Assembly: GCA_051362555.1 (NCBI GenBank)
Contig: CM120644.1
Location: forward strand, 6,084,954-6,148,953
Length of the DNA stretch: 64,000 bases
Direction of reading: 5' to 3'
Source of the DNA: Lingula anatina
Taxonomy: Eukaryota; Animalia; Brachiopoda
In this document: positions 3,801-58,671 of the stretch, piece after piece
Layout of the letters: each line of letters begins with the position of its first letter
How positions within the stretch are numbered: position 1 is the first letter of the stretch
Made by a program: the position numbers and the translations under genes
Notes under the pieces: generated by a model
Told to the model about the DNA's origin: nothing
Databases searched by the model: none
Seen by the model: the letters and a program-made list of their open reading frames with translations, nothing else

Positions 3801-4216
3801 TCCCCATTCACATGTAGTGCAACAGAAGTTGACCGGAAGTAAAACTACCCAACTCTCGCCCAACTCTCGTGGTCACAAGCTCATAACACAGAGGGCAATA
3901 CAAATCTCGCGGGAGTTGGCATTCCATTTTCTCTACTTCTATGTAAAAACGAACAAGAATATTCTTCATACCGAGAATCACACAAGGGCATTATCATACA
4001 GGGTTCTGGGGTCACTATTGATCTGTTTTGTCAATCTGGAACATTGTCCCTATATGTGGAAGACAAGTTATTGTACAAAATCTCTTTAATGGTGACCTAT
4101 TATAATGTCTTTTATGTGTGTCTGTTGTTCTTTGGTCGTGTTATTATCCATAACTGCACTGAGGTTTATCATCTTTTGTTTTTGAGCCACCATTTAAGGG
4201 ACGTACCCACTACCAA

Positions 4217-5413
4217 GTGTCTCAAGGCCACACATTGTTTTTGCACCAGTTATTCGCATACATACAAGAGATAAATAGTTACAAGTTGCTGACACCTTAT
4301 GTTCCTCCCGCAGTCCACACACTCAGACCAGCTTCTATGTCATGGTCTGAGGGGATTCGAAAAATCCTTTTCACATTTGGCCTTGGAGATGTGTGGCTTA
4401 GCCAATCACCTCCAAAAAACTTCACCACAATTTTCAAACAAAGACAAACTGACCACTTTACCCAAATATGCAATAGCAAACTTCAAGCCAGCAGTAAATT
4501 GTCTCTCTTCCGTATACTTAACCAAAAGTGTGAAAGGGCAACTTATGTTGATAAAATAACAAATTATGACACCTTGTCAACCCTTGCTAAACTACGTCTT
4601 AGTGACCATAAACTCCACATCGAAACTGGGCGGCACACCAGGCCAAAAACTGAAAGGTGCGACAGAATCTGTCGCCTGTGCACCCAAGGGGTAATTGAAG
4701 ATGAATACCTTTTTATATTCCAATGCCCAATGTACAAAGCAGACCGAGTCACCTTTTTTAGTAAAACCTCAATCCTAAAAGCTGATATAAGGTCACCAGA
4801 CAGTCAATTATGCCATGTATTTAACAGTGCCAACAAAGATACTTTAGTGTCCCTCTCCAACTTTATAATCAAATCATTCAAGAAAAGAAGTGAATTGGTT
4901 GCTCTGCTTGGTAACTCTTAGCATATCCCTTAAAATGTCAGTGTATGGTCCCACTGTTGTGAGAAGTGACTCGGCAGTGGGACTGAACATGGCACAATAT
5001 TTATATCTGTGTAACTTATTTACTTATCTGTCTTATGTAATTGTCATTAATAGTAATTATCTATGCCATCAAACTGGCCTTAAACAGCCATGTAAACAGC
5101 TATGTAACTGTGGTTTTAAGTTTAAACATATCACATATCCTTTTGTGTAACATGTTTATAGTATGTTTATGGTAAATTTATAATCACACCAAGGTTTATC
5201 TCATTGCTTAGATAGAATATTTTATGAGTAATTTTACTAGTACGTATGTTCATTATATAAAGATTATTTTTTCCTTCACAAATGGTTAGGCAACATAATA
5301 CCAACTAGAGAAATGGTAATGCACTAACTGTATTGTATCGTCATTAGTATATCATATTGTACAATGTCATGACAATCTATGTACCAGTACAGAAATAAAT
5401 TGAATTGAATTGA
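4217..5413 (+). mobile_element. 5'-truncated non-LTR retrotransposon (RTE-X-like C-terminus, 3' UTR and tail)
   Basis: ORF motifs LAKLRLSDHKLHIETGRH and RICRLC..IEDE..FQCPMY; ends in AATAAA followed by a (TTGAA)n tail at about 5395-5413. Confidence 0.8.
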
Positions 5414-6498
5414 AATAAAATATATTCTGTTTTTCCACAAAAACGGCAGTTATAGCTATTATTATGATATCTGGCCTCCATTGATGGCTATGCTCTGTTA
5501 TAATCTCTTAAGAGATTTTAACAAAAAAAAAAAACAAACTTTTTAGAAAAAGACCAGGGGCTAACTTTGAATGTAAAAATGGATTCATTAACTATTGGTA
5601 AGTATGGGAAAATTGTTGTATACTCCAGGAAAATTCATTTTTGGCCAAAATGAAGAGTTATTATCCCTTTAAACAATCAACATAAATAAGACCAACCTCG
5701 TACACTGCCTTACACCTCGACGTCTTACGTGCTCAGTTATAGATAATACATGGGATAATACAGGTAGATAATACATTGACAATGCGCGATATTGACGTCT
5801 TTCCATCGGAAACCGAGTGTCTAACATGTGATTTAAATATGGCGGTCGCTGCAAAAAAAAAAGGAGGAAGTGACAAGTCTTACAATTGCAGAACCGGCTG
5901 CTGGAAAGGGCTGACAATGGAGACAAATGCCATTTAACTACCACTAAAATGCGCACGTAGTGGGTTGAAAACGCTCGAGCCATTTCCGAAAAACGCCGAG
6001 CGTAAAACTGAACACAAAACGAAAAAAGAACAAACAAAAATGCGCCATTAAAATTTCGTTTTGGTGAGTGACGTAAACCTCACAAGTTGAGCTTGATGGA
6101 CATTTTTATGGAACAACTGCGAATATAATTACTGCTGTCATTTTATTTTTGTCTTAGACCATGAATCTGTCAATGGAATCCATTGCACATCCGGCCCTCT
6201 GCGTTGAATACAAGTGCACAAAATTATTCAGCGGTCCTGGTAAAGGGTAGGTAGGGGTGGTGTAGTTACATAACCCTAGACATTGGAAATGGGCGTATGC
6301 TCACATGGGTCTATAATTTAATTCTGTCCACGTCAGTGATCAGGTTTTCCGCGGCAAAACATCAAGAAGCGGTTCTTTGCATCTCGTGAGAAACTGTAAT
6401 ATATATAATTATAACACGGAACAACTGCAAATATGATTTCTGCTGCTCATTTTATTTTTGTTTGAGACTGATTAACATTATTCCATTCACTATGGGGC

Positions 6499-9400
6499 CT
6501 ATCTTCCCAACAAGTCGCTGATCTTCCCCGACAGGTCCACCTGTAAATTAATGTATGTTTACACTAATATGACAATGTAGAGTTATAGGCGAACATGATG
6601 GTTTTAATTACACGTCTGATGATACTGGTATGACAATGCCGAGTTAAAGATGAGCACTAACGCATTATGGATAAAATCTCCTCACAACGGTTGCATTGTT
6701 CATAACAAATCTTTACTTATAATATACTGAGGGATCAGGGTTTCTTTTTACGGACATTGTTGAAGCCTAGGTTACATTTGCCATGCAATGGCAGTGCGTT
6801 GCACGTATAGCGTCCGGTAATCCCTTTTCGTTTGGCGTCTGTGTGGAGGGGGGCGGTGACCGTGCGATCTCGTTCCCAGCGGGCAAATCAACATTGAATC
6901 AATGTTGAATCAACGTTGATGGTCAACGTTGAAACTATGTTGATATGACGTTGACTATGAAAGTTGACTCAACGTTGAACCATCAAGGTTGAATCAACCT
7001 TGAGGTATCAATGTTGAATCAACGTTGACGGTCAACGTTGAAACTATGTTGATATTACGTTGACTATGAAAGTTGACTCAACGTTGAACTATCAAGGTTG
7101 AATCAACCTTGAGGTATCAATGTTGAATCAACGTTGACGGTCAACGTTGAAACTATGTTGATATTACGTTGACTATGAAAGTTGAATCAACATTGAACCA
7201 TCAAGGTTGAATCAACCTTGAGGTATCAATGTTGAATCAACGTTGACGGTCAATGTTGAAACTATGTTGATATAACGTTGACTATGAAAGTTGAATCAAT
7301 GTTGAACCATCAAGGTTGAATCAACTTTGAGGTATCAATGTTGAATCAACGTTGACAGTCAACATTGAAACTATGTTGATATGATGTTGACTATGAAAGT
7401 TGAATCAACGTTGAACCATCAAGGTTGAATCAACCTTGAGGTATCAATGTTGAATCAACATTGATACCTCAATGTTGAATCAATGTTGAAATAAAGCTGA
7501 ATTTGAAAATTGAATTAACATTGACATATCAATTAGGCTATCAGGATATTTGATTGAAATTTGCCTGATGGCTGAAGGTGTTCTCCAAGATATCAAGCAT
7601 TTCTTGAAATAAAAAGACTCAGATCTGAAAAGGGGGGGGATTAGGAAAATTACCTACAAAAAAAGGTAATTTCGGAAGAAAAGGGGGGGTCCAGACCCCG
7701 GGACCGGCCCCTGTATCCACCTATTGGTCGTCCAATTTTTTTTAAACTTTCCAGTTTGATGCTCAGTGTTACGGACCAAAACAGCCCGAACAAAAAAAAA
7801 ACACAAACAACAACTAATTTAACTATGAATATAATATACTACAAACAATGAACATACACTACATACACTAACTACATGTAATACTATCATGTTGCATAAA
7901 CTTTAACATTTGTCAAATACAGTTAAATTCTAACAGATTCGTAGACAGTTAAGTTTTGAAGACGCAATGTCACAGTTTTACGAGTCCTTTTCTGTTGAAC
8001 GTTCCTCCTGATAGTGTGGGGTTTTGAAGACGCAATGTCACCGTTTTCCATGTCCTTATCTGTTGAACGATCCTCCTGATAGTGTGGCCTCACAAAGTAC
8101 TGTTAATAAAGTACAGTTTTTGTACTGTAAAAGTGTTGCACACTGTCCACACTCACGTGTTGCATCAGTTCATGTTATCCGGAGTCTCGCACTTAATAAC
8201 AGTCCCGCACTTCATTTACATTATACAAGTATGCAGGCACATACGGTAATTACTCATAAAAATTAAACAACAAATTAGCTTTACTAAAATAATTATAACG
8301 TCACATCAGGTAGTTAAAATTTTAAGAATACTAAAACAAAGGGTCACCAGTTCTCACAGCTAACTTAAATTTCCAGAAAAACAGGCATTTTTGGCTTTTT
8401 CAAGCTTTTTCTTCAACCTTGAGTAAAATTTTGTCAATTTGCCATAAAGTAAGGCTGGTGACCCTTATGTTTTTTTCTTTTTCTTAAAGATAACCTGAAC
8501 ATCAAATCTGGAAAGTTTTAAAAAAAACTGACGACCGCTTTTTTCACAAAATTAATTTTAATGAAAAAGGGGTAAAACAAGCGTTTTTTATGTCTCCTCC
8601 ATCCCAGTGCATCACAAAGTTGCATATTCCCGTTCATAGCAAAAGAGAATGCAACAAAAACTATCGGGTGTTCGTGATTTGGCCAAACAAGGCCGCTTTT
8701 ATTAAATAAACTCACTATCCTAATAATTTTAACAATAATAACAATGTGGCAAATTGTTGCCTGCATTAAATGTTATGGCCTTAGGGATAAAAATTAAATA
8801 TAAAATATGCCTAATAGTCGGCAGATGTACTACGTACAGTGTACATGTACAGCTACTCCCTGCTTGAACTTGTACATAATCTTTCGCTGATATAATATGC
8901 TGTAAACGTGTTGTAACGGTTCGAAATATCGATGAACTGCTGGAAAGGTCTCATCGAAGGAAAAGCCGATGAAATTTTCTGAACTGAAGGTTTAAGTTGA
9001 AAGTCGGAGATAACTTGTAGCTTCAACGTATCGTGCGCGACAACAGAATGAGCGCAAAATGGGTCAGGCAGTGACGTCCCCTGGTATAAGTAGCAACATG
9101 TGCCTCAATTGGGACCACCCCTCCAGGTAGAATTGAGCATGTGCAGAATGCGCATGTGCGTAAATAAGCTCTGGAGATTGTTATCGCCATAAAATATCGT
9201 TTGACTACGCCAAACTTTCCTATGAGGGGTAATTACAACTATGCATACCTCTCTAGTGAGATAATCATTTAAAACTATTATCCAGGTTATGATTAAGGTT
9301 AAAAGTTAAGGTTGACCCAATGTTGAGATCCAATTGATATGTCAACATTGACAAAGGGTTTACAAACACAGGTTGATTCAATGTTGAAATCCTGTTGATC

Positions 9401-12334
9401 TATGAACATTGAAAACTGATTGACAAAGAAAGGTAAAATCAATGTTGAGACCCTGTTGATCTATCAACATTGACAATTGGTTGACAAGAAAAGGTTGATT
9501 CAATGTTGAAATCCTGTTGATCTATCAACATTGAAAATTGATTGACAAAGAAAGGTTAAATCAATGTTGAGACCCTGTTGATCTATCAACATTGACAATT
9601 GTTTGACAAGAAAAGGTTGATTCAATGTTGAGATCTTGTTGATCTATCAATATTGATGGATCAACATCATCTCAACCTATCCTCAATGTTGAATCAACGT
9701 TGAGTGCCCGCTGGGTTCAAGGTATTGCGGTTTCACGGCTCCCTAAATCTTTTGACAAAGTTTTTAAGTGCCATATCCATAAACCGATGCAATATCGTAG
9801 GTGACATTGAACAGTTCAAATACGGGCATTACTCGGTGGACTTGAAGTGATGGTTATGATTGCTTAACCCGTTGTTGGTATCATTCGCTACCTCTTTGGT
9901 GGTTTTATAAGGCATGGCAATAGCGAAAATGATAAAATCTGAGTATATTTCACTTGTATGAATTTGAGGTCCTGCGTTCCCTTATTCTGACCACTTTGAT
10001 GTCAAAAACACGGAGGCGGGGGGGGGGGGGGGGGGGGGGGGGTAACCGACCTTATCAGTCTTCAAGGAAGTTGCACGGAGGGAGTTCGGCATCTACACTA
10101 GGTGCCTTGGCAAATGTCATCTAGGCTTTAGCCGATCTCGATTGCAAATTAAGATTTTTACAGGTTATTATGTTTAAGTGTTAAAACATCTCACATGTCA
10201 GTGTAAAACCTCATAACGTTATCTCATTGAAATGCAGTGTGTTTCAGATATAAAATAGGGTTCTTACCACATTTGGATTGATTGTCTGGAATGTTTCCAA
10301 GTGTGTTCAATAGAAATGCAAACATATAAGTTAGAAGGAAAAAGATTAAATAATAATCATTTGATCATGTAAAACCGACTGTCACCAAGCCATGAATAAT
10401 TATGTTAAATGCTTACATTTATAGTTAAGGACTAGCACATTAAAAAGAGTATCTCCTGTGGTCTTATTAAAAAAGAGAGAAATCATTTATTGCAACTTAA
10501 CCATTATGCTTCTTATTTGAAAATATAGTTTCTTACCGGAATCGGATCAAGACAAAGAATCTGGAATGTTTTTGAAATAAAATTAATGTTTGGTGAAAAA
10601 CAAATATTCTTGTTTGCCCTAAATGTGCATGCATATTCATTATAACTTAACACATTGATTTACAAAAATCACAATCAAAAATGTTTGTATTATGATCTAA
10701 AAAACAAAACAAATATGGTTAAACCTATTTGATCTAGGAATATGTTATTAGTTACGTTAAACCTTAAACAAATAGACTAGTTTCACCATTACACGGCATA
10801 TATGCACATGCCCACAGTTGTAAAAATTAAAAAATAAAATATATACATATATATATATATATTTTTCAAACTTACCGGATATAGTAAACATTCAAGCTGA
10901 AGGGGAAAAGGCCACGTTGTATATATATATATATAACTTTTAATTTTTGTGGTTTCATTGCATCTATATTGAACTATTTTCTCTTACAAATTTGTACTAG
11001 TAAAAAAAATTGAGGATAAAATAAGTGTCAACCATTTGAAATATCATATGAGTATCATAATAATAATTACAAATATTGACAATTATAATTTCTCTTTATG
11101 TAAACTCCTTAGCCAATCCCGAGTGCAAATCTATTTTTTACAGATAAGAATGATTCAGAGTTTAAGCCCCTGACACTTCAGTAAAATACCTAAAATATCA
11201 TCTCTTTGAAATGCAATTTGTTTCAGTTACGAAAATACGCGTTCTTACCTTATTTGGCCATGGCTTGGTTGTCTGAAATGTTCCAAGTGTTTTGGATACA
11301 TATAGTAATTCATACGTTTAAGTTAGAAGACAAAAAGATTTTACTAAAAATTTCTTTAATCATGTAAACCGAATATCATCAAACTATCATAAAAATGTGC
11401 ACATTTAGATACAAGTTCTAAAGGCCAACTTCATTTAATATCCCAGTGTTATCCCGTGCGAATTAACATAAAGAAAATCATACTCCGGCCTGTTATTTAT
11501 TGCAATAGTTATCAGTATACCTCTTATTCTGAAATATAGCTTCTTACCGGCAGTGGCCAATCACATGGAATCTGGAATGTTTTTCATTTAAAATCAATGC
11601 TTTGGAGAAAACAAATATTCTTTTTTACCCTAAATGTACATACAGATTGGCAAAAATCATAATAAAAAAGCTCAAAATGAATATGGTTAAAATCATTTGA
11701 TCTAGGAATATGTTATCAGTAATGAAAATAAGGTCTGAGTAAGAATCAAAACGAATATGGTTAAGAGTATTTGATCTGGGAATATATTATCGATTTATTT
11801 TTATCAATAATGTTAAACCCGAACAACAGACTTTAGTTTTCACCACTATACGGTATATGCACATGCCCTCAGTAAGGGTTTTCTATTCGGCTGTATCATA
11901 TTGCAAAAGCAGAGAAGAGCATCTATTTAAAAAAAAACTTACCCATGGGTATCTTGAACATGGAAGCTGAAAAGGGGAAAAGGCGAAGTTATATTTATTT
12001 ATATATTTGATGTTTTTTCTTGCTGCGGTGTTATTTTCTTCGATAGATTTATTCTGTCAATAAAACTTGAGGAACACGTGCTAAAGCTTTAAAACATCTT
12101 ATGAATATAGATATAGAAATAAAAAAAAGATTACTGCTATTTAAATCAATTCCTTTGCCGCTTTCGAGTGCAAATGTAGTTTTTTATAGATGACTTTGTT
12201 TCAGTGTTCGAGCACCTGTATAGCACCTCAAATGTTATCCCTCTGAAAAGCAGTTTGCTTCAGATATGAAAATATAGGTTCTTACCTCATTTGGGACGAT
12301 TGTCTGGATTATTAAAGTTTCCGTGTGTTTTGAA

Positions 12335-12365
<31 letters not shown>

Positions 12366-12957
12366 TTAGAACAAAAAAGGTTAAAGTAATTATTTGATCA
12401 TTTAAACCGATTCTCAACAAGCCATATAAATATGTTAAATCCACGCATTTATAGTAAACGGTTAGTACATTCTAAAAACAAACGTGCTACAAAAATTTTA
12501 AAAAGAGAGAAATTGTTTGTTGCAAATTTATCATTCTGCTTCGGATTAGAAAATATAGTTTCTTACCGAAAATGGAATACAGGACCCCTGGAATGTTTTA
12601 AAAATGAAGTTAATTCGTTGGGGAAAAGAAAATATTCTTCTTTACCTCGAATGTACATACATATACATTATAAGTTTTCAGGCAGATTGACAAAATGTTT
12701 TATTAAAAAAGAATGATGGTCTCATAAGCAAAACGAATATGGTTAGACTATTTGATCGAGGGATATGTCAAAAGTAACGTTAAGCCTTAAGCAAACAGAT
12801 AATAGTTTTAACCAATAAACTTTATTTATACTTGTCCTCAATAAGGCTTTTCTTACCATGCATGACTCGGTTATCCTTTATTGCAAAAATAGTGAAGGGA
12901 ATCTATTATTTCTTAAACTTACCCCTAAGCATGGCGACGGCTGAAGGAAAAAGGCAA

Positions 12958-13035
<78 letters not shown>

Positions 13036-15607
13036 GAAGAAAAACGATTAAAAAACAATCATATGATTATGCAAACCGATTATCGCCAAGTCACAATTAA
13101 AAACTTTGTTAAATGCATACATTTATAGTAAACAATTAGTAAACACTTTAAAAATGAATGAATAAAAAAAACAATATGTATGCCGACCAATAATACACAA
13201 AAAACATAGGGAGCATTCAGATAGACACATCGTGTTTGTTGGATCGGTCCAATTCTGTGGGGCTCTCACTAACTGCAATCGACTACACTAAATGACACGT
13301 CTCCTTGGGTAGTTAAGGAGCAACTAATTTTCTTGTCAGCTCTGCTGAACTACCCTCCAGCTGCTCTTGGGAGGCGTGTCAGACAATAAACCTAATTCTA
13401 CTGATTGCACTTAGCGAAAATCCCCGCATGGTTACACCTATCCGATGACGTGACAGACCCTACGCTGTGTCTCTCTGAATGGGGTCACATAGTTCCTTAC
13501 ATCTACAGGTAGGATAGCCCGTTCGTCAGTGCCGCGAAGTACGGAAAGGAGGCGGGAACCTGAAATCAAATAATTGTAGAAAACTATTACTATTTTACAA
13601 CAAATATATGTGATGTAGATGTCAGTGTTTCGATGAACAAGTATTCAACTCTCACAATATGTTGAAAATATCGGCCATGGTTACTATTATAAAAAAAATA
13701 ATAACTACAGTATTTATTTGTTTCTTGACGAGAATAGAAGAGTCTCGTTAATGATAGTTACTCAAGAGTCTAAGCAATAAATAAATAGATCGAAAATTAA
13801 AACAGTAACCAACAACTTATCTTGCAAACTCAAACAAACTGTTACTGTTTTCGAACCCAAACATTTACAGAAATCATATACATCACATAAATTACATGTA
13901 TTTGAGTTTCAGCAGTGTATTTCACACACGCTTTTCACAAGCGTAATTATGTTCACACGTCTTCTACGTTGACACCCTTTCCAATTTTTTATAAAATGAA
14001 TTTCTTTTCATTGTTTTAGATTGTATTTGCGGTGCAATTTTAGCTGGGGACGTAACTCTCAAGAGCTGATTGCCACTATACCATAGTGAACATACGTTAT
14101 TAACGTAAGGTTGTGAATATAAAATATAAAATTGTGAATGCCATGTTGTTAAATGCATACAATGTAGGATTGCAAAGTCATTCCAAGTGCATGGATCGCT
14201 TATTGTTGAACTTATCTGAGGACAATAATAACTTTTAAAACATAAAATTATAGACAAATGGCCTCGCCTTCGCCGCCACCTTTCTAACATCGGTAGCCAG
14301 CCATCTTGACACAGTTTGTAAAAAGAGCGAATCACGGCACGAGGGTCCTGCGATATCTGGAAGTCGAGTTAATGGAATAAATGGTGTATCTGGATAACCT
14401 CCACTTATGCGCAGGTTTTGATCTTTGGCCTTTTACCAAAAGTGTGTCAGAGTCAAGTGATTTCTAGACCAGCAAACACGACACGTTCGGATCACGTGGC
14501 TAACACGTTGCTACCACATTATAACGTCATAGCAACGTGCCAGCCACGTGATCCGAACGTGACGTACTTGCTGTTCAGGAACGGATATTAAATGTTGGTA
14601 AATCTTGAGGAAAATGCCGTTTACCCCGGGATAATTCGTTTAGTATGGTTTTTGGCTCAAGAAATTCTCCTTTATGCACCATTAACTGTGAAATGCTTCT
14701 ATTCATACTCTAAAACAAAATTCAAAGGAAAGGTGCACATGGTATGTCGTGAGGCCTGGCTTAGAGATGCGCTTATCTGCAAAGTAAAGCGGGTAGGATA
14801 GGCCTTAAAGTCATGTCGGTATAGCCTTCTGGTATCAGCCTAACCTCTGATAACAGGTCAATTTTCAGATTTGCAATTCTCATCGACGTTTATGGCAGTT
14901 TTTTAAGAGAATAGCCGGAGGGGATGGACAAAAAATATACAGAACGATAAAACATAACATTATATGAAGTGTGTAGTTGCATGATATAAAAAAAAAGAAA
15001 TTGTTCCCTAACAATTTTGCCCCTTATTTTCTGGCACTTTTCTGGCGTTTATATAATCATGGATTAGTTATTTATTCATTTCCAGGATTATATAAACGTG
15101 GCAAAATAATACATAGTCAGACATCGCAATTGTAGTAATCAAAACTGCTTAATTCCCCAAAACTGTAAATAATGAAATTCAAACAAAGTTTTTTTGCGCA
15201 AGAATTCAAAATTATAATACAACGGAACTGGAAACTTTGTGCTTTTTGAAAGATTGAACAAAATGGTCGTCACCACAACGATTTAAGTAAGGGAAGGATG
15301 TTTTTATTTTCTTTTCCTATTATTTGCATACTATGACTATTTAACTTTCTTACCTCAGAATTTCTTGTTAAAACCAACCATATTAAGTCCAAACATTTTT
15401 TCAAATCCAAAACGAAAGCAAAACAGTACAGATTTAAAAAAAATCACAAAGGGTCAATTAAGCACATATGTTAGCATACTGCCTTGGTTACTTTTTACTT
15501 ACTTCTGGTAAAGGAAAAAAAAGAAAAAACTCACCGCGTGTTTCCTTGGCCCCGTTCGCTATGTCACAAACAAAGCACACAACGACGCACAGCAAGAACG
15601 CTCTCAT
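6499..15607 (-). CDS. Micro-exon gene A: secreted Cys/Pro-rich prepropeptide, 12 exons, 121 aa
   Basis: Exons (all GT-AG): 15607-15535 MRAFLLCVVVCFVCDIANGAKETR; 13559-13501 GSRLLSVLRGTDERAILPVD; 12940-12923 PSPCLG; 12587-12567 GSCIPFS; 12303-12286 TIVPNE; 11966-11943 LPCSRYPW; 11571-11548 IPCDWPLP; 11272-11249 TTKPWPNK; 10896-10876 LECLLYP; 10560-10537 ILCLDPIP; 10285-10268 TINPNV; 6540-6499 VDLSGKISDLLGR*. Phases join without a stop; hydrophobic N-terminus; AATAAA on the minus strand at 6451-6456. The last exon is the least certain (3.7 kb intron). Confidence 0.8.
6890..7490. repeat. Five tandem 109-bp units (left subterminal array)
   Basis: GAAACTATGT recurs at 6931, 7040, 7149, 7258 and 7367. 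Confidence 0.92.
9370..9660. repeat. About 61-bp tandem units (right subterminal array)
   Basis: GTTGATCTAT recurs five times at roughly 60-61 bp spacing. Confidence 0.85.
10180..12960. repeat. Three diverged tandem units of about 1 kb, each carrying three micro-exons of gene A
   Basis: Shared landmarks AATATAG(T/C)TTCTTACC (10522, 11533, 12552 approx.), AATATGGTTA..ATTTGATC, and CTGAAG/AAAAGGC repeat at about 1 kb period. Confidence 0.88.
12962..13032. repeat. (TA)n(TG)n microsatellite
   Basis: Direct reading. Confidence 0.95.
14469..14573. mobile_element. Small hairpin MITE in intron 1 of gene A
   Basis: CACGTTCGGATCACGTGGCT...AGCCACGTGATCCGAACGTG inverted repeat with CCAGCA-like ends. 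Confidence 0.7.
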
Positions 15608-16050
15608 CCTGCTGCAGGCTCTTCCTCAAAAGTATGAACGTCAGAACTGCAACGAGCACCTGGGAGCCCAGAGTTGATTTAAATAGTCACATAAAATACA
15701 TGCCCACGCAATATAAACGGGAAGACCGACCCCTCGTCACACGTACGTGTACGTGCCATTATGCAGGTTTGCCCGAAAACTGGTTTAAAGGAACTTAAAC
15801 ATCTGGGCGCGTTTATCTAAGGAGATGCGACAATGCAGAGCAATAATAACGTAAAAAACCATACTGTGTTGCACACTGGAAAAGTTCTGATAGCTATACA
15901 GCTATATGATAAGCAAAATAGAAAACTGAGCCACGAAAAATACGAGTATTTTATTAGTAGACGGAAATACAAAAGGTGATCTTATAAGTTTTAGACCCTT
16001 TGTAATGAATAAGGTACCATCTCTACACCTTCGTGTAATATTTCATCTTA

Positions 16051-21900: not shown

Positions 21901-21999
21901 AAAAAAAAAATTCAAAGAGACAGAGAGAGTCTTACCTGGATCAGACAAAATACGACAAAATAGGCCAATCAATACGGTAAATGCGAAGATCGCTGTCAT
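18960..21999 (-). CDS. Secreted multidomain lectin: signal peptide + chitin-binding type-2-like Cys domain + TSP1 + C-type lectin (QPD), 4 exons, about 310 aa
   Basis: Exons 21999-21936 ([21 protein letters not shown]), 21624-21250 ([22 protein letters not shown], then [25 protein letters not shown]), 20715-20545 ([34 protein letters not shown]), 19282-18960 ([24 protein letters not shown]). All introns phase 1 GT-AG, frame open. Confidence 0.88.
19612..19833. mobile_element. Palindromic MITE in lectin intron 3
   Basis: GGGCTCCGTATCTCGAAAGGTTCGC...GCGAACCTTTCGAGATACGGAGCCC, near-complete fold-back. Confidence 0.85.
19844..20396. mobile_element. PIF/Harbinger-type MITE in lectin intron 3
   Basis: TIR TACCCCGTTCACACTAC / GTAGTGTGAATGGGGTA with TTA TSD. 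Confidence 0.8.
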
Positions 22000-23934: not shown

Positions 23935-24425
23935 ATGAATATCAAAATAACTTGGATTTTCATCATTTTGCTGGTTTATGCATCAGCGGTGTTTGTTGGG
24001 AGCAATGTGATCCGTGAACGGAAACCTTCAACTTGTGAGTGCAATTTTTTTAAAGAATAAGTAACAAATACCCCTGTTTCAATATACAAGTGATAAGCTC
24101 TTACTTCAGGTGGGCTTTATTGATAATCCATCAAACTGAGCTGGGCAGTTAGCCTTATAAACATTATTTTTGTTATAAATATTTGATCCAAAAACTATAG
24201 TCTCGCGGGGAGATTTCATTTGGTTTTGACGGCTTAATAAATGGAAAAAACTGATCACCGTGTTACTGTATGTTATTGAAACCCCAATGAGTCACACTGT
24301 AGACGTTAGCAGGGAAATTCTGTCTGATCCAAGATTGCCGGTTGCATATTTATATATATACATAAAATAATAAACGAGGTCAACCTTATCACACACACTC
24401 ACACACATACACACACACACACACT

Positions 24426-24456
<31 letters not shown>

Positions 24457-25754
24457 TAGGAATGTATAAGACTGAGAAATGGACAACCCCCAAACTAAAG
24501 AGGCACGTGAACCACTGTGACCCCCATTTGGTCATTGTGGACATATCCAAATATTGGCTGCTGAAATCTCAGATAACACTCGAACCAAATGTCTAATTTC
24601 AGTGCTCACCCTTGGGCAAAAGCAATGGAAGATTCGATTTATGCATTTATTCCAGCTTCGAAATAAACGCGAGGTAAGCGATTTTTCGTTTTTGTTGTTT
24701 ACGTTTATACATACGTATGTTTGCTTGTGTCAATGTACATTCTTTTATCATTTAAAAATCCATTACAAATATCCCGGTAGCAATTATTGAATTAAATCGC
24801 ATTAAGGTTATTGTTTCGTCTTTTCAAAATAAGAATACCATTTTAATTTGAAATAACTGCCACCCAATTACGATTGTAACAGGTTGGCAATTGAAGGTTG
24901 TTTTCCTTTTTCAGACGAGTCCAAATCTATGGACGTTCCCCCCAAAGGTAAGTACACCTTAGCTCATTTGAAAGAAGCGCCTTATAAGACAATGTTTGGA
25001 CAACAATGTGATAACTTCCTCCGCCAAAAAGTTGTACTTTGTCAGTTTGTCCGTAAGCAACGTTATGCATTATCATAAGAGTAGCAATCCCAACAGTTGG
25101 TGAGTTGGATTCCAACCTGAAACCTTTGTGAGAAACTTCAAAACAGAAGCTCGTACATAACAATGGACTTAGAAACAGTCACTAATAGGAAGTCCATCGG
25201 AACCTGAAAATTGTTTAAGTACGTGGAAATTGGATTTAGAAAAATAAGTAAATTTTAGTCCTTTGCATGATGATTTTATGGCATGAGAGGGCATGTAGAG
25301 TGGGTTAAATGTATGAAAGGATTTCTGATAACTTTATTTATTCATTTTGTATTGATTTATTTTTATTTATCAGTATTCAATTCAATTCATTTCTGTACTG
25401 GTGCATGATTAATCATGACCTTTTGCAATATAATATAATAACAGCAAGACAATTGGTGCATTACCATTCTCTTTATTCACCTTCTTTGCATTCACCTTCT
25501 ATTCTTTGCAGATCACAATTCGAACTTTTCCACCGATTCCAAAGGTACAATGTAGGTTGTAGACGTTGTGGAAGATGCTTAAAGCCAATGTGGTTCTATA
25601 ACATCATGATACATGGCGATAAAAAATCTTAAATCAAAGTATAAAATATAGAATGCCATACTGTACGTCACAGAATGGTTGATCAGTTTCCCATTTATAT
25701 TTCCAGGTGACCATAAAGCCATGGACCATACGTTCTATAGTAAGTTGTGCTGTG

Positions 25755-25800
<46 letters not shown>

Positions 25801-28293
25801 TTGTTGTTGGTGGTGGTGGTGGTGGTGGTGGTGGTGTTTTTTTTTTTCCTTTTTTGATTCAATAATTTGATGAGGTAAAATCCTCGAGTCCTTGCAACCA
25901 TTCGTATGTGAACTGGTAAAAACGTGCAGAACACCGGTAGCTTTCGCATGTAGATCCATATGCTGAGCATTCCATGCATTTATAATCACACAAGAGCATT
26001 TAAGTTATGTAACATTTGTGAAATGGACAACATTTTTTATTTATTTCAGAAACCCATAAAACCCTGGACGGTGCCACCAAAAGTAAGTTATACCGCAAAA
26101 AAAGTCGCACGTTAAACGACCACTCGTACCTTGTGATTCAGTTTGTCATTTTGATAAACACTTTTGTACAGTCACATATATTGTCATCTTTAAATTTTCA
26201 GTTGTAGTTTGCAGAAACAAAATCGTCATTCATCACTGTTTTTTAAGTGGAGCTATTGTCGTGTACGTTTCGCAAAACTTTTCGCATTTTAAGAGCTTAA
26301 TTTCTTTCTTACCATTAGGTGACCTTTACTTTTCCACCTGAGGTAAGACATTATACATATAAAAGTATGTACACTAATAATATATCATATATTTCTTGAA
26401 AAAAAACGTAACGATACTTATTTATTATTAACAATAATGAATACTGGTTGCTGATGTCCCGAATATGAATAGATGAATGTTCTATATTATATATAACAGT
26501 ATACGATTGCTCACGATGTGACAAAGGTATATTGCCCTTAATACATGTATGTTACAACGTACAGTGTATATGAACGTGTATCAAAATTAGCTATCACGTT
26601 CAATATGTCTGTATGTATGTTCAGTGCATGCAGGAATATTGCCCAGTTTACTTGCATGCACTTTTGTTTCCATCTAATTATAGCATAAATAAATGAACTG
26701 CATATAAGATATATGAATAGGACTCTTTGCAACATGAGAGGGGGTGGATGTCTTTGGTAAACCGCCGGATGAGAGTGACTAGGGCAGAAGAAATTATCGC
26801 AAGGACTGGCGCAATTTGTGTTTTCTTATAGCCAATACTTATCCTTTACAACTCTAATGGACAAGAAAGATTAAGATGGTTAATAACATCAGGACACGTG
26901 GTAATAAAAAACTCTTACATGAAGTATAAAATACAGAATACCAAACGGTCACAGAACGGTTGATGAAACATGGTGATGGACCAGTTTCCTATTTATGTTT
27001 CTAGGTGACCATCAAGCCATGGACCATTCGTTCCATTGTGAGTTTTTTTTAAATATATATCTGATAATTCCGTGTGTGTGTGTTTGTGTCTGATTTAACT
27101 GGATAACTTTTGTTGGGTTACCACATTCTTATAAGAACATAATCAGTTAGATACTTGGTGCATATATTAATTCAGATATGTATCTTAACTCAATACAACC
27201 ATATTTTAATTAACTATAGAAAACATTGTGCTATTGGCTTGTACTATTACTATTTTTCTTGTCGTTGTTGTTTGTTGATGTTGTTTTGGTTCTTGTTCCT
27301 ACTGCTGTTGATTTCTACTCCTTTTCCGTTTTCTCAATAAATTAATGAGGCAAAAAACATTCCTCCTCGCTTGTGTATGCGAACATTCTTGTGTATGGAC
27401 TGGTAAAATCATGCAGAGTATGCATCGATAGCTTTCACATTTAAGTCTATATGCTTGGCATTCCATCCAGTTAATCACACATGGAAGTTTAAGAAATGTA
27501 ATTTTTGTGAAATGGACAACATTTCTTTATTTCAGAAACCTATTAAACCCTGGACGGTGCCACCAAAAGTAAGTCATACAGCAAAGAAAAACACACTTTA
27601 AACGAGCACTCGTTTCCAGTGATTCAATTTGATTCAATTTTTGGTAAACCGTTTTTTTTCAGTCACACATCTTATCATGTTTAAATTTGTATAAAGTTGT
27701 AGTTGTATAAACAAAATCGCAATTCATCAGTCTGGCATTTTAAAAACTTAATTTCTCTTTTACCATTAGGTGACCTTTACATTTCCACCTAAGGTAAGAC
27801 ATTATACATATAAATGTCTGTACACTAGCTGATATATTTCATGACAAAAAAAAACGTACCGATACTTATATATTTTTAACAATAATGAATACTGTTGCCG
27901 TGACAGGTGCCTTTAGAGACAGTCTATTATATTTGTGTCTTTATATTTGTGAACAATGGACACATTTGTATACTTTGTACATAAAACTACGCAGAAGTGG
28001 AGAAGCACCAGAAGTGTCGTTTATTTACTTTTGATAGTTTACTTCTAGAGAACAATCGGACTGCTTCCAACTGTAAGTAAATTCATCTTAAAAGAATACA
28101 TTTGGACCAGATTGTTTCAAATTCATATACTTAAACAAATACAATGTAAACGTTGTAATCACACCAATGCTTGTCATATTGAAATTTCAGGTAAATCTAA
28201 TCCAATCTAGATACCGATTCTGTTTGCATTCATTTACTCCCTTCTCTCCCATTGTCTATGAGATAGCTTTTGTAAACCGTTTTATAACGTGTG

Positions 28294-28324
<31 letters not shown>

Positions 28325-28475
28325 AAACAATGCCAATGCAGTGATGAACTGATGCGTGCCAATCCGGTACATTTATCCCATTAACTCATCAAACATTTGA
28401 TTTTCATTATTCTTACAGATCGTTCTGCCAACAGCCGCACCTTTACCAACATTCCCTCCGGATTTGATTGGTTAA
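23935..28475 (+). CDS. Micro-exon gene B: secreted Pro/Thr/Lys/Trp-rich cationic prepropeptide, 11 exons, 154 aa
   Basis: Exons (GT-AG): 23935-24034 MNIKITWIFIILLVYASAVFVGSNVIRERKPST; 24603-24673 LLTLGQKQWKIRFMHLFQLRNKRE; 24915-24947 TSPNLWTFPPK; 25707-25739 VTIKPWTIRSI; 26050-26082 KPIKPWTVPPK; 26319-26342 VTFTFPPE; 27005-27037 VTIKPWTIRSI; 27536-27568 KPIKPWTVPPK; 27770-27793 VTFTFPPK; 28049-28072 RTIGLLPT; 28419-28475 IVLPTAAPLPTFPPDLIG*. Signal peptide, RNKR furin-type site, AATAAA at 28588-28593. The exon-2 acceptor is ambiguous (in-frame alternative at 24573). Confidence 0.82.
25640..27900. repeat. Two tandem units (about 25640-26450 and 26920-27900), each carrying three micro-exons of gene B
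   Basis: Shared AAGTATAAAATA.AGAAT.CCA, TTTGTGAAATGGACAACATTT, GGTAAGACATTATACAT and AACAATAATGAATACTG. Confidence 0.9.
25757..25836. repeat. Compound (AAT)n(TTG)n(GGT)n microsatellite in a gene B intron
   Basis: Direct reading. Confidence 0.95.
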
Positions 28476-36323: not shown

Positions 36324-38144
36324 ATGGCAGAGGCATTGGCAGCGGCTTTCACGGATAACATTTTGACATGTAGTATCTGTCTGGAAGAGTATGAAGACCC
36401 CCGAGTGCTGCCTTGCTACCATACATTTTGCCTTGCTTGTATATCTGACCATGCCAAGGGAACTCTCACTGCAAGCAGGACATTTTCGTGCCCTGTTTGC
36501 CGAGAAGATGTCCAGTTTCCAGCCGGTGGGCTTTCTCAGTTAAAAAGGAATTTTGTCTTTTGCAAGGCCAAAGACATAATAAACCAGCAAACGGAAACAG
36601 GGTCGTCAAATAATGCACAGACTAATGTGGAAGCAGTGACACAAGCCGTTGAAAAATTGACCAACGGCTGTGAGAAACATCCTGGCAATGAACTGAAATA
36701 CTACTGTGAAGATGATGATACAGTTGTTTGTGGTGACTGTGCATTGACTGATCATTACAGGCATGGTATTTTACCTGTAGGAACAGTTGCGGATATCAAC
36801 AGGAGAAAAATCAAAACTGCCCTTGTTAACACTGTGGCAAAAGTTAACGTATTCAAAGAAGCCGCCAGAGAAGCAGCCAATGGATTTGAGGACCCCGGTA
36901 TCATGATTGCCACTATCAACAGCGTTGAAAGACAAGCCCATCATGTATGTAGATTAATTAATGCGAGGAGAGACTCATTGATATCAGACGTTAAGTTTGC
37001 CTATGATGCCAGAAATGAGCAATATAAGGCAATAAAGGACACCCTCGAACTTCACATTGCCTCCTTGCAGAGTTCCTGTGACTTTGCCCAACAACTTGTC
37101 GCAAACGGCACTGACTCTGATATCATGACACATGCAAAGTCTCTCACAGATAAACTGACAACAATGGAAAGCATACCAGTACCAACATCAGACACACCTG
37201 CAGAGATATCTTATATTCCTGGTGAAATACCTACTTCTAGACTGGAAGCCATGCTAGGACAGGTGACAGTACATTCAAAACCCCCGTTAGCCGGACGGGG
37301 AACAAATCTAAAATCATCACCGAATGTGCCTATTTTCTTAGAGAAGGCAGAATGTGTATGTTCTTTTACTGCCAAACTTAAACAGGATAAGAGAGAAGAT
37401 TTTATGTGTTGGAATTTAACCATAGATGGGCAATTTGTATATGTTGCATGTGTCATAGATATTGAAAACCTCGAAACAAATGTGCGAGTGTTCACACATG
37501 CAGGTCAGTTCTGGCGTCAAATAAGGTTAAACAAAGCAATTGATGTGGCTGTGTCACAGACTGGTAAAATGTATGTGACGTCAGAAGGCAACAAACGAGT
37601 CAGAGTGTACACCACCAATGGCATATATATAAAATCCATGGGTCAGGGTCAGCTGGAAAATCCAGGTTGTATCACACTGGACAGACAAGGCCATGTTGTG
37701 GTTTATGACGTGGACCAAAAATCTATATTTACATTCCATGCAGACACTGGAAGGCCCCTGAATACAGTTCCACTCACTTTGCCTAAATGTCCTTGTTACA
37801 TCACAGTGAATAGCGTGAATGATAACATTGTGATATCGGACTTGGACAACTGTGTCCATGTGCTGTCACCTACTGGTGATCATCTGCAGCAGAATAACGG
37901 TAGTGGTGATGGTCAGTTGAATGGATCGTCGGGGTTATGCACAGACAGCTATGGTCATATCTTCATTGCTGATGGTCGTAACAATAGGATTGTAGCAATG
38001 AGTCCACAAGGGCAGTTCATCAAGTATGTTGCCACTGAAGATGATGGATTGGTAGGGCCAAGGGGATTAGCTATCAACCCTGCTGGTCTGCTGGTGGTGG
38101 CAGGGATGGGGGGTAAAGTTAAGACATTCAAGTACTTGCAATAG
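36324..38144 (+). CDS. Intact intronless TRIM-NHL protein (RING, B-box, coiled coil, NHL repeats; TRIM2/3-like), 606 aa
   Basis: RING CSIC..PCYHTFCLAC..CPVC; B-box CEKH..YYCEDD..VCGDC..H; coiled coil; NHL repeats (GHIFIADGRNNRI, PRGLAINPAG). Confidence 0.93.
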   Translation: MAEALAAAFTDNILTCSICLEEYEDPRVLPCYHTFCLACISDHAKGTLTASRTFSCPVCREDVQFPAGGLSQLKRNFVFCKAKDIINQQTETGSSNNAQTNVEAVTQAVEKLTNGCEKHPGNELKYYCEDDDTVVCGDCALTDHYRHGILPVGTVADINRRKIKTALVNTVAKVNVFKEAAREAANGFEDPGIMIATINSVERQAHHVCRLINARRDSLISDVKFAYDARNEQYKAIKDTLELHIASLQSSCDFAQQLVANGTDSDIMTHAKSLTDKLTTMESIPVPTSDTPAEISYIPGEIPTSRLEAMLGQVTVHSKPPLAGRGTNLKSSPNVPIFLEKAECVCSFTAKLKQDKREDFMCWNLTIDGQFVYVACVIDIENLETNVRVFTHAGQFWRQIRLNKAIDVAVSQTGKMYVTSEGNKRVRVYTTNGIYIKSMGQGQLENPGCITLDRQGHVVVYDVDQKSIFTFHADTGRPLNTVPLTLPKCPCYITVNSVNDNIVISDLDNCVHVLSPTGDHLQQNNGSGDGQLNGSSGLCTDSYGHIFIADGRNNRIVAMSPQGQFIKYVATEDDGLVGPRGLAINPAGLLVVAGMGGKVKTFKYLQ

Positions 38145-39169: not shown

Positions 39170-40742
39170 TTTTTACTTCGTACCTATTGCTTCAAGCACA
39201 GCACTGCTGTTGGTGGCACAGCAGATGACTCTGAAGTTGTCGACTTTGACGTCACAATTACATAGCAAACCAAAAGGCGTCTCTTTGAAAATGCTCACGG
39301 CATTTTCTTTGATTTGCTTCTGGGCCCTAGAATCCGGGCATTCATAATCGTAGTATAAGGTCCGAACGAGGTTGCCATCTGAATTCTGATATCCTGTAAC
39401 AGTAAAGAGTACTTTGAAGATATACCCTAATGTATTACAAATACATTATTTGAATTTAAAACCAGCACGTACGAGTTCAGTCGGGCACTTGAGTGGTGGG
39501 AGCCCACATCCCTCTCCCTCCACACACGTAGTAATTTGGCACGGTTCTCATGCCGGCTGGCAAGTCGAATTCTTACGGGTTTTGGCACTGGAGTGTGCAG
39601 AACATTCCGAATCCAAAAGTGTCACAGCTGAGAGCTCCGTTGATAGATGTGGAGATCAGGGCACTTGTGGGCTGTAATGAGCACGTTTCCAAAGTTAGTT
39701 CATTTGATCAATGGTATTACCACGTGACTAATATAAGATCTATATGAAATATGACATAATCTTCGGGGATGTGAGGTCCGAGAAAAGATAAAACTGACAA
39801 ATGATGTCATCATCAATCATAAGACTGGCCGATAACGTACGTCATCACCAAGCATAACACTGACCGATTATAATGTATCAAGTAGAGTGCCCCTAGTGGT
39901 ATATGCTAAAACCTACACTCTACCAGTATATTATATAATGATCTCGAAGTTGAAAACATTACTTCGTTTCTGCATAAGACAAATTATGTTTCCGTAAGCA
40001 GTTGACGAAAGAGCAACTTTCGCGGTTTCCAGCTTCATCTCTGACGTCGTAGACTACCTTGTACCGTCCCCAGAAGAACTTCCCTGGACTAAAATTGCTG
40101 ATCACCGTCACAGGTTTGCCACTGTTGTCCGTTACCGTTGGCTGGACCCAGGACACGTGGACCTCTCTGTCCGTAGACACCACTGACACGGACGTCATAC
40201 CGGCTGGTAAGTCGAAATCGTACGGGTTCTGGCAGTGAAGAGTACAGAACACTACGAACCCAGAAGTGTAACAGCTTGCAGCTCCGTTGATAGGTGTGTG
40301 GAGATCAGGGCACATGTGGGCTGGAATGAGCAGGTTTCCACAATTATTTCATTGAACAATGCTTTTATCACATAAATGATATGAGATCTATATGAAATAT
40401 GATCTTGAAGTTGAAACATTAATTCGTTTCTGCATAAGACAAATTATGTTTTCGTAAGCAGTTGACATAAACACGGCGATTACTCACGTCCTACGTTAAG
40501 CGTGAAAGAGCAACTTGCGCTGTTTCCAGCTTCATCTCTGGCGTCGTAACTACCTTGTACCGTCCCCAGAAGAACTTTCCTGGACTAAAATTGCTGGCCA
40601 CCGTAACGGGTTTGCCACTGTTGTCCGTTACCGTTGGCTCGACCCAGGACACGTGGACCTCTCTGTCTGGAGACACCACTGGGTCAACTTTGGGGCAGGT
40701 TATGGTCGGTGGTTGGACATCTACATGGGGAGTAACAAGCAC
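39170..40742 (-). pseudogene. HYR + sushi/CCP (SVEP1/hyalin-like) gene remnant with duplicated exons
   Basis: HYR motif PPTITCP..VSWVEPTVTDNSG..F..GRYKVVYD.RDEAGN..CSF present twice (about 40490-40720 and 40000-40190); sushi-like CPDL..INGA.SC..FCTL.CQ twice; terminal exon YYDYECPDSRAQKQIK..LCNC; frameshifts and an in-frame TAA. Confidence 0.75.
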
Positions 40743-42936: not shown

Positions 42937-43186
42937 ATACACTTCACACAAAATACTAAGTACACTGACAATGACGGTATGCCGTTTAGAACAAGAATCA
43001 AGACTGTTGGTGGTAGCAGAGTCAAACAATAATTAATTTCAGGTATTTTAGAATTTACAATTATAAGAATAATTAATTTCGGGTATTATGTTGAAATATT
43101 ATTATAGTACTGTGTGATAAATTGTAAATAACAAAATTAAATAAGAATCACCTGGAACTATTTTAAAAGACATGTAGCAGATAATT

Positions 43187-44035
43187 TACGAAATTTGCAA
43201 ATTTGGCAAAACACTTCATCTACCACAAGCAATAGACCAGTTGGCTGACTGGGTCAAACAAAACAAGATGAAACTTAATGTAGGGAAGACTAAGTCGATG
43301 GACATAGATTTTACCAAGAACTGTAATCTTACAATACCAACATTGGAAATAGATGGTGAACGTGTAGAAAAGGTCAAAAAGTTTAAGTTACTTGGTGTTA
43401 TTTTAACCCCAAACCTCAAGTGGGCTGAACACATCCAAATCATGTATGCTAAGGCATGTTTAAAGCTCTTTTATCTCAGACAGCTAAAGAGGGCAAAACT
43501 GGACATACAAGATTTATTAACTATCTACCAGACTGTAATAAGATCAGTTTTAGAATATGCCTGTCCAGTATGGGGACCAGGTCTGACTGCTGAGCAATCT
43601 GATTGTCTAGAGTCAGTTCAAAGTCAGTCAAAAGAGAGCCTTAAGGATTATTTGCCCTGGTCTCAGTTATGATGATGCCTTAAAAGTTTGTAACATTAAC
43701 ACCCTAGACAAACGTAGACATTTGCTATCAGAGGTTTTATACAAAATTAAAAAATTGTGAAAAGTTGGGACATTTATTGCCTGAAAGAAACACCCGCTCT
43801 TTACGAAACAACACCAAATTTTTACAACCAAAAGTGAAGACGGAACGTTTAAAAAAGTCCTCTATTAATTACTGCCTTTTAAACTTGAAGTAATTTATGG
43901 AAGCCTTTTTAATTTGTAGTATTTTAAGAATAATTTATTGTTTTATAATTTAAAGTTTATTGTCAATTTTCTTTTAAACATTATTGTACAACTTCAACCT
44001 TAGGGTTGCAATTTTATCTAATAAATTATTATATT
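43187..44035 (+). mobile_element. 5'-truncated CR1/L2-group LINE fragment
   Basis: MKLNVGKTKSM..KFKLLGV..LKWAEHI..IRSVLEYACPVW (RT thumb region); ends with AATAAA and a short TTA tail; absent behind TRIM copy 2. Confidence 0.8.
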
Positions 44036-55850: not shown

Positions 55851-58671
55851 TGAAAAAATTTATTCTAAATATTACCTTTATCAAATACAGTGCTTGCCAA
55901 AGACACCATGGTCTTTTCAATATTGTCCGAAGTATATGAAGTATTAAAATGGCACATTCAAATTAATAGCCAAATGATCACCTAACAGCTGTTAATTGTT
56001 AGAAATAGTGCTTTTTATTACGTATACCGTGTCTAACATGATTAATGGTTTAAAAAATACAAAATAGTGGTGAAAATATACATAGTTTATACCATTTAGT
56101 AAAATTTATAAGAGGTACCCCCTCAAATCGACTGTTTCACTGTGACTTCTAAAGATGTAAAGAAATGACTATAAAATTGAAAAGACGCCATCAAATGTCA
56201 CCAAATTCACACACAATTAGCATTAGGGCGTGCTCATTAAAGATCACGTGCCTAACAGCGTGTGCGTGTACCGCGTACTGCAATTATTTCCTGTAGACGG
56301 CGCGACAGCTGTGAGGTGATCATTTGTAAATAAAAGTGCATGGAAATGGGGGTGGGACAACCTTTTTGACCAATGCTGTATATCATTATTAATCAAGCAG
56401 GAAAAACAAAAAACGATTGTCTGAAATCGTTTATCACTGTTATTTATTTTGGTTGTCTCAATCACCTTTTCATTAGTTATAAAAATAATTTAAATTGTTT
56501 AGATGAACTAAGGCAGCGGAGGCAATATTGTTGAAACCTCGTGTAGACAAGTCAAAATACACACAAATGTAAATGTGCAGTTACTTTGTGTAATTTTGTT
56601 TAAATTTGGGCTGCAACTGATGGTGACGTTTTGTATAATGGGTGCCATTTTCATATCATGGAACCTGATTATAGACAATTTGTTACAAAATTCATATGTG
56701 TCCTCGGTAATAAAAAACAGTCTGACAACGAAACAGTTAGTCATGTTATGTATTGTACATTTATATAATAGGGTCAAATACATGTAGATGTTACCCTGTG
56801 CAATCTGGATATAATGAATCCGTTGGTGAAAGCTACTAAGACTTTTATACTTGTATTGCAAATTTATCCATATAAGATAAAAGCCAATTATAAAAACCGA
56901 AAATCATTATCCTTTTGGAGCAAGTTTGATAATTTTCAGAGTAAAACTAATACAATAGATCAATTAAGAATTAGGTTTTGAGATCAGATTAAAATGCACC
57001 TCTGCACTAGGATAAAAGCTGTTGAAAAAGCGTTCACTGCCTTTAAAGGTTAAGAGTCTACAAGTGATGATGCAGGATGAGAGTCTTCCATGGTGTAAGC
57101 AGTTTTTTTTTATTGACCATATGCAAAGAATCGAATTATTTAACAGAGCGATGGACTCCTCACATAAATGTCATTCATCTTTGTCAATGTTGGCAGACCT
57201 TTATTTAAGCTGCAAGCATAGCAGTGAGCAAAGAATTCTCTCTCTGCCTACACCCTTCACTTTTTTGGCCATTTTCAGCAAAATCGTATAATCTTGTGGA
57301 ATTTTTATCCGAAATAAATGCCCTCTATTACTACAACCTGATGTGGTCTGTTGTGAAGACGCAAAACGATTCCTTCCAGTCTAAAGACCTTCTATTATAA
57401 AAGTTAGCTATGATTGTGTTACATGTAGCTGCAAGGCCCTAGGATGGGATTGTAATGTGTTAGTTGCATTCTACTCACTTTGGTCCTCTAAGCTCAATAA
57501 GAAGGTAGTTGTCCATTATGTCTAACTTGAGCTGGTAGACAGGATTAGACTGGTGTGTGTCTGGATAGTTACCACACCCCCCTGCCGACCTGCCTTTCCA
57601 CTGTCCTGTCAACTGGAACATGGAATAAATTACCTTCATTGTGGATGTGACCATACCGCATAATTGAAAAACATCATACGTAGAGTAACAACGTTTAATC
57701 ATCTTATTTAAATGTATTATGACAGATTCACATGGGATTGAAATAGACCTAAATTTTCTGTCTTCTAGTTTCAACAAACTTTCCACTTTAGCCCTTATTT
57801 TAATGTGAGTTCTCTTATCAGCTTACTGCAGCTTTTACCACAAGGCAGTACGGTAATTACATTAAATTTTCAAAAGCCCTACTTTTTCAAGATTAATCAT
57901 TTTCAGACTTGCAAATTACAACAACGTAGTCCTTAATACAAAGCCAAACGATTTGTTAATTTTTTTTCTAACCGTTTTAAGTATTTAAATATATTTTTGG
58001 GGGGATATGGATGGGAACAATCAATTTATGTGCGAATTTTTTTGTTATGAATACGGTATGTTACATATCCGGCACTGAATCAAGCGGTTTTTCAAAGAAG
58101 TATGATGTTTTCGTGAGCAGAAACATGGTTTGTTGCGGTTTGGTGATTTATGAATAATAACAACCACAAGGTATACTGTAGAAGTTCGACATGTGACATG
58201 CTAAGTGCGAGTAATTGTGTCGCTACTGTAGTAATTGAAATTTTATTCCGGTTTAAGTGCAGAAAACTTGATTAAATCCAGGCATGAGAAGTGAGCAAGT
58301 CAGTGAATAGGCTCAGTTATTAATATCAACCCTTTTTGTCTTAGAATTAAAACCATTTTAAACATGAATTAAAAATTTGTATATTTATAATTTTTTGATG
58401 TCATGAAAAACGTTTTGTCTATGTTATGTTTAAGAGAGAAAACTTACAATGAAACGGTGTTCGGCCCCATACTTTCTAATAACCCTGTTATATCATTGCT
58501 CAAGTTAGGTTTTAAACTCCTCCGTATCCGCATTGCTTTTTATTGTTAAACAGTATTGCACGACAAAGAGCGCCATTGATTACAACTCTCATTTCACAAT
58601 GCATGCAGGACGTTTGCTGAACGTGTTGATACTGGCTGCGTTTGCCGTACTGGTAAGCATCTATCTCATTT

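Follow-up and report, generated by a model that had tools for sequence, protein, structure and literature searches.

Micro-exon genes (MEGs) have so far been described as a trait of flatworm parasites that is tied to host immunity, and they are apparently restricted to platyhelminths, according to the accessible part of PMC4350168. In the accessible parts of the papers on schistosome and tapeworm MEGs (PMC4350168, PMC7653826, PMC10526429), these genes carry a signal peptide and place short symmetric exons between longer flanking exons. Their product is small and secreted, gene finders miss them, their sequences change fast, and two of them can lie within 50 kb. The same description fits gene A, which is located on the minus strand of a 64,000-nt stretch of a Lingula anatina contig (CM120644.1; this whole stretch is the window, and all coordinates below are positions in it). 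Gene A is probably real and apparently unannotated, and it would be a secreted-peptide gene of MEG-type architecture in a brachiopod. Unlike the flatworm genes, as far as those papers document them, it belongs to a free-living host, its micro-exons are visibly tandem copies of a three-exon unit and its introns are short. No sequence relation to the flatworm MEGs was found with the exon-1 frame, and exon skipping is only a prediction here.

The operational MEG definition in the accessible part of PMC7653826 applies to gene A on all three counts: it has 12 exons (at least seven define the class), nine of the 12 are micro-exons, and these form a run of nine. Measured against the schistosome families, 192 of its 363 coding nucleotides (53%) fall in micro-exons, which is marginal for the trait of having most of the coding sequence in very small symmetric exons. 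The signal peptide that characterizes those families in the accessible part of PMC4350168 is present, as judged by hydropathy alone. The host, however, is Lingula and not a platyhelminth, as indicated by the matches of a TRIM gene and of a neighbouring gene B in the window, and the exon-1-frame searches returned no MEG family. Schistosome MEG families are further marked by exon skipping that creates a pool of isoforms and by raised dN/dS; on the first trait, four RNA runs gave no reads on exons 1-2 of gene A, and on the second, pN is close to pS between its units while exons outdiverge introns. Gene A is MEG-like in layout but is not classed as a schistosome MEG. An earlier interpretation made from the letters alone (the sequence-only reading) had proposed an unannotated MEG-like secreted effector, whether defence peptide, toxin or matrix protein, in a genome that did not look like that of a schistosome. 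The architecture, the Lingula host and the RefSeq match of gene B bear out the part of this proposal that concerns an unannotated MEG-like secreted-peptide gene; the effector role is a prediction, and nothing found points to a toxin.

Comparable layouts are known from vertebrate SCPP and casein genes and from further secreted repeat proteins with short phase-0 exons, in which a signal exon is followed by short symmetric exons multiplied by duplication and the product is Pro-rich. Gene A differs from these in that its intron 1 is in phase 1, so that its introns are not all in phase 0, and it has no phosphoserine clusters; homology is not claimed. The MEG-type design is probably recurrent outside flatworms, and a pair of such genes in a free-living brachiopod suggests that it arises whenever a secreted-peptide gene copies phase-0 exon blocks. 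No paper naming both Lingula and microexons was found, and no brachiopod micro-exon gene was named in the titles and abstract openings of the papers listed, subscription papers being outside that scope.

The gene A model comprises 12 exons and 366 nt (121 codons plus TAG), contains no internal stops and ends in Gly-Arg. It rebuilds exactly the chain put forward in the sequence-only reading, namely a signal exon, a 59-nt phase 1-to-0 exon and nine exons of 18, 21 or 24 nt in a stop-free sequence of 121 aa. The coding part of exon 1 (73 nt; 15535-15607) specifies the predicted signal peptide and ends in phase 1 at a GTGAG donor. Exon 2 (59 nt; 13501-13559), a possible short pro-region, leads from phase 1 to phase 0. 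The micro-exons then follow in the recurring order a, b, c. One Cys is carried by each type-a exon (a1, 18 nt, 12923-12940; a2, 24 nt, 11943-11966; a3, 21 nt, 10876-10896) and by each type-b exon (b1, 21 nt, 12567-12587; b2, 24 nt, 11548-11571; b3, 24 nt, 10537-10560). The type-c exons are Cys-free linkers (c1, 18 nt, 12286-12303; c2, 24 nt, 11249-11272; c3, 18 nt, 10268-10285), and c2 contains a Lys-Pro-Trp motif found in gene B too. The coding part of the last exon (42 nt; 6499-6540) supplies 13 residues ending in Gly-Arg, followed by the TAG. Each micro-exon is bounded by a CAG acceptor and a GTAAG donor. The acceptors had also been called pyrimidine-rich without distinction, which holds for the three of type a (pyrimidine fraction 0.82-0.94 at -20 to -4) but not for the other six (0.41-0.65). 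Read in the two remaining frames, the micro-exon chain contains one and five stops. A splice-matrix scan of 5800-15800 yielded no further symmetric micro-exon of comparable score, a result that leaves room for a weak extra exon.

The nine micro-exons represent three tandem copies of a unit of ~1 kb, each with three exons (a, b and c). Homologous introns of the units are 68-79% identical, and the introns of the array are short (251-371 nt). A remnant of a fourth unit (13032-13154, minus strand) consists of a piece of the b-c intron in which no exon is left, and matches 10330-10446 and 12366-12478 at 74-77%. The run of symmetric exons noticed in the sequence-only reading is real, but its members are not independent; the tandem triplication had been overlooked. 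Triplication by itself accounts for a run of symmetric exons, without any need for alternative splicing. Gene A would grow by copying exon-plus-intron blocks, and the phase-0 symmetry would let such copies survive. The introns of gene A still record how the array arose, and the two neighbours took different paths, gene B keeping its repeats and gene A changing them. The origin of MEGs, with duplication first and skipping later or never, thereby becomes directly testable.

Within 10100-13000, a region picked after the fact, nine CAG-(12-36 nt)-GTAAG pairs occur, whereas 2000 Markov shuffles average 0.18 and never exceed 2. The enclosed length is a multiple of three in all nine gene A pairs versus two of the eight other CAG-GTAAG pairs on the minus strand. 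Because the array repeats a single unit three times, this argument is weakened to three independent exon types, but the copies offer a better test. All 24 columns of the CAG and GTAAG motifs are identical across the units; of the 824 ungapped columns as a whole, 445 are (rough p 4e-7). Exon length shifted among the units on at least four occasions, each time by 3 or 6 nt, whereas 24 of the 65 pairwise gaps in the unit alignment are multiples of three. One cysteine is retained in every a and every b exon of all three units. Such keeping of splice sites, frame and cysteines across copies is, as read from the alignment, how selection for splicing and an open frame shows itself. Given the three exon types and the choice of region, one might suspect a tandem duplication of non-coding DNA that held splice-like sites by chance. 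This explanation can hardly be credited, as splice sites, frame and cysteines were retained while the rest diverged by 25-45%, a phase-matching signal exon and an adapter exon stand upstream, and the same plan is real in gene B.

A TATA-like box seen in the sequence at 15678-15685 (minus strand) begins 78 nt 5' of the ATG and may act in a promoter, and an AATAAA polyadenylation signal is seen at 6451-6456 (minus strand), 42 nt past the stop. Confidence in the model is lowest for the last exon, whose acceptor score of 9.1 is the best from 10260 to 6000 outside the insert of intron 11, on a splice matrix trained on genes A and B themselves. Intron 11 measures 3727 nt, or ~0.89 kb once this transposon-like insert is subtracted (2841 nt, 6875-9715, strand undefined; 11-bp terminal inverted repeats and TT flanks). 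Arrays of 109-bp and 61/122-bp tandem repeats lie close to the two ends of the insert. Exon 1 may also end further downstream, since a second strong donor 32 nt downstream (GTAAGT at 15502) would give phase 0, with a candidate extension (15503-15534, minus strand) in which the frame stays open. The interval between the two donors (15534-15502) holds a pyrimidine tract, a CAG and 2 nt. This could be exon sequence, extending exon 1 by 32 nt in frame, or a 30-nt intron followed by a 2-nt exon; either would reach phase 0 and bypass exon 2. A strong donor at 15353, with a candidate exon of 10 nt, was dismissed by inspection, because joined to exon 1 it disrupts the frame and joined to the longer exon 1 it leads to a stop. 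The region of the poly(A) signal is duplicated ~300 nt apart (6480-6400 and 6175-6100, minus strand); the second copy sits behind a short AG-led open frame, and this frame could be a relic or an alternative last exon.

Hydropathy reaches 2.3-3.6 in the 9-residue windows starting at residues 1-9 of the exon-1 frame. The micro-exon part is 23% Pro, the chain has no transmembrane stretch, and the cysteines show one spacing per a+b pair (C-x4-C, C-x7-C and C-x6-C). At about even odds (a probability of roughly 0.5), gene A encodes a secreted Pro-rich peptide with three predicted disulfide loops, which would act in binding or defence within a surface secretion and would evolve fast. The TATA-like box, the hydrophobic N-terminus and the AATAAA, all in place, count toward this reading. 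The signal peptide would be removed near residue 20, and each a+b pair would close a small disulfide loop on a Pro-rich linker. Selection on what the loops bind may then have diversified them. The terminal Gly-Arg could be processed by an established pathway, in which carboxypeptidase E trims the end and PAM amidates it. A PHM-like amidating enzyme occurs among the Lingula shell proteins (PMC4595640 Supplementary Table 25). A signal peptide and a terminal Gly-Arg would also suit a neuropeptide or hormone precursor that releases an amidated C-terminal peptide. That role is very unlikely, as the exon translations of gene A contain no dibasic sites (KR, RR, KK or RK) and its units are not repeated bioactive motifs. 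In the accessible part of the supplement to a brachiopod neuropeptide survey (PMC8557429), moreover, two gene A motifs have no match, and two of the four matches to the C-terminal motif are unrelated nematode and bee precursors.

Exons have diverged more between the units of gene A than the introns that flank them, a point absent from the sequence-only reading. Identity is 105/177 in exons versus 731/1036 in introns, and p-distances per unit pair are 0.42, 0.47 and 0.33 in exons versus 0.30, 0.26 and 0.24 in introns. The excess comes from the two exon types with a Cys, a (49% identity) and b (55%), and type c (76%) lacks it. This pattern is suggestive, not proof, of diversifying selection on the Cys-bearing exons.

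Several results weigh against a binding or defence peptide. Window resampling gives P values of 0.094, 0.003 and 0.093 for the exon-intron difference, only one of the three being below 0.05, for unit pairs that are not independent, provide ~60 nt of exon each and are set against a gapped alignment that inflates intron identity. Between units, pN and pS are about equal (0.42/0.43, 0.48/0.44 and 0.33/0.35), so that the codon test gives no positive selection. The mature peptide has a pI of about 6.3-6.4 and is not cationic, unlike typical antimicrobial peptides. The homologue and RNA checks suggested with the sequence-only reading, made on exons 1-2 only, revealed neither a true relative from the exon-1 frame nor any reads on these two exons. 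The frame gave no candidate among 5.8 billion proteins (80-2000 aa), and its four matches among 1.84 billion representatives, all repeat proteins with summed scores, were judged spurious. For gene B a relative was found at once by the same kind of search. Pfam returned nothing for exon 1 of gene A. A look-up with exon 1 itself listed no RNA run containing it. Reads covering exon 1 or 2 were absent from four of the nine RNA runs listed under the species label, each read to 6-25% at 90% likeness against 13040-15800 and without a positive control. On this target each run placed 15-44 reads, nearly all of them partial 90-95% matches to intronic repeats. The runs may stem from a diverged population, because gene B differs from the RefSeq L. 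anatina protein at 14 of 165 residues (8%), and the absence of reads on exons 1-2 is weak evidence against gene A.

The same silence in the RNA would be expected of a gene that was once functional and is now silent or decaying, its splice sites and frame recording past selection. Such a history would agree with the lack of an annotated orthologue of gene A, whereas gene B has one, and with the near-equality of pN and pS, the weak pyrimidine tracts at six acceptors, the 2.84-kb insert in the last intron and the exon-less remnant of a fourth unit. It is nevertheless unlikely, as none of the 12 exons has a stop, a frame break or a damaged splice site, and the promoter-like and poly(A) signals are intact. 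Small gland-specific micro-exon genes are, moreover, often overlooked by aligners and annotation, according to the accessible part of PMC7653826. Gene A flags a class of secreted peptides overlooked by annotation in marine invertebrates.

The sister gene B (23935-28475, plus strand) lies 8 kb from exon 1 of gene A, and its 12 exons (100 and 71 nt, nine of 33 or 24 nt, and 57 nt) encode 165 aa. Its exon-1 frame matched one protein, XP_013402169.1 (P0121), an automatic RefSeq model that is identical to the gene B product at 151 of the 165 residues with no gap. Eleven of the 12 exons came from splice scans, and the twelfth, with a GTACAA donor, was located only with the RefSeq protein in view. 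The match shows that Lingula annotation treats such chains as genes, and validates the modelling approach. Like gene A, gene B opens with a phase-1 signal exon and then a 1-to-0 exon, followed by nine micro-exons and a last exon with Asp-Leu-x-Gly at its end. Both products are Pro-rich, both genes contain an internal three-exon duplication, and the two are arranged head to head. Outside microsatellites, no DNA similarity was detected between the micro-exon region of gene A and gene B. The gene B product is rich in Pro, Thr, Lys and Trp, basic (pI 11.2) and Cys-free, with a furin-type site, a C-terminal Gly and conserved repeats, whereas that of gene A is neutral, with six Cys and diverged repeats. 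The two repeat units of gene B, arising from its three-exon duplication, differ by seven synonymous changes versus one non-synonymous change and, judging from this count, are under purifying selection. In the ESM Atlas, the best feature score of the gene B orthologue is 0.80 (apidaecin-like), which is inside the chance range, and its model has a pTM of 0.14. With the CAG inside exon 2 of gene B as acceptor, an exon of 18 nt would result.

Gene B also bears on the main alternative, tentative but not negligible, that gene A encodes a structural or adhesive component of the cuticle, pedicle mucus, setae or periostracum, in which repeats would have multiplied through exon duplication and drift as only Pro, Cys and length matter. 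The Pro/Thr/Lys/Trp-rich composition and high pI of gene B favour such a role, as does the label 'adhesive plaque matrix protein' that RefSeq assigned automatically. The gene located between A and B also has a signal peptide, with a TSP1 domain, so that the neighbours are secreted and of matrix type, and the near-equality of pN and pS agrees with relaxed constraint. The Lys-Pro-Trp core is presumably shared by the repeat of the mussel adhesive Pvfp-1. The accessible part of PMC4275877 describes Pvfp-1 as Trp- and Thr-modified, a further point for an adhesive role. However, the protein units of gene B are nearly the same as each other, unlike those of gene A. The 14 homology-free shell proteins in PMC4595640 Supplementary Table 26 include none whose length, pI and composition would suit A or B, and XP_013402169.1 is absent from one supplement of PMC13425148 with 1126 XP_0134 identifiers; both sources cover the shell only.

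Every subset of the micro-exons of gene A stays in frame, so exon skipping would be possible, although a binding or defence peptide does not require it. Since the two cysteines of a loop are on different exons, skipping one exon is predicted to leave a free cysteine, and splicing an a exon onto a b exon further along would give a hybrid loop. Gene A might in this way be a convergent MEG-type diversity generator, in which a-to-later-b skipping yields up to six disulfide loops plus shorter forms, as cyclic binding peptides for surface defence; this extension is rather doubtful. If it is true, one gene would supply a splicing-built repertoire of small cyclic binding peptides. If skipping is absent, gene A would be a tidy but ordinary lineage-specific secreted-peptide gene.

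The interval between genes A and B (22002-18960, minus strand) contains a signal-peptide exon ending at 21936 and a 378-nt exon (21627-21250) with the TSP1 domain and a Cys-rich stretch similar to a chitin-binding module (no Pfam match). A terminal exon near 19290-18960 has a C-type-lectin-like Cys pattern (no Pfam match). These three exons would form one gene. Beyond gene B, four single-exon RING-B-box-NHL (TRIM2/3-like) genes occupy 30200-54750 on the plus strand; the copy at 36324-38144 is intact, and the others are split by stops or frameshifts. This cluster belongs to a large Lingula expansion. The 41 best matches of a TRIM gene of the window are all from Lingula anatina, the top one at 82%, while exact look-up of three window TRIM proteins found none. 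An HYR-domain fragment (39959-40348, minus strand) lies between the TRIM copies, and a calpain domain III fragment is found at 57475-57822 (minus strand). Fragments of LINE reverse-transcriptase-like open reading frames were recognized by eye at 4163-4921 (no Pfam match), 43178-43672 and 61887-63386.

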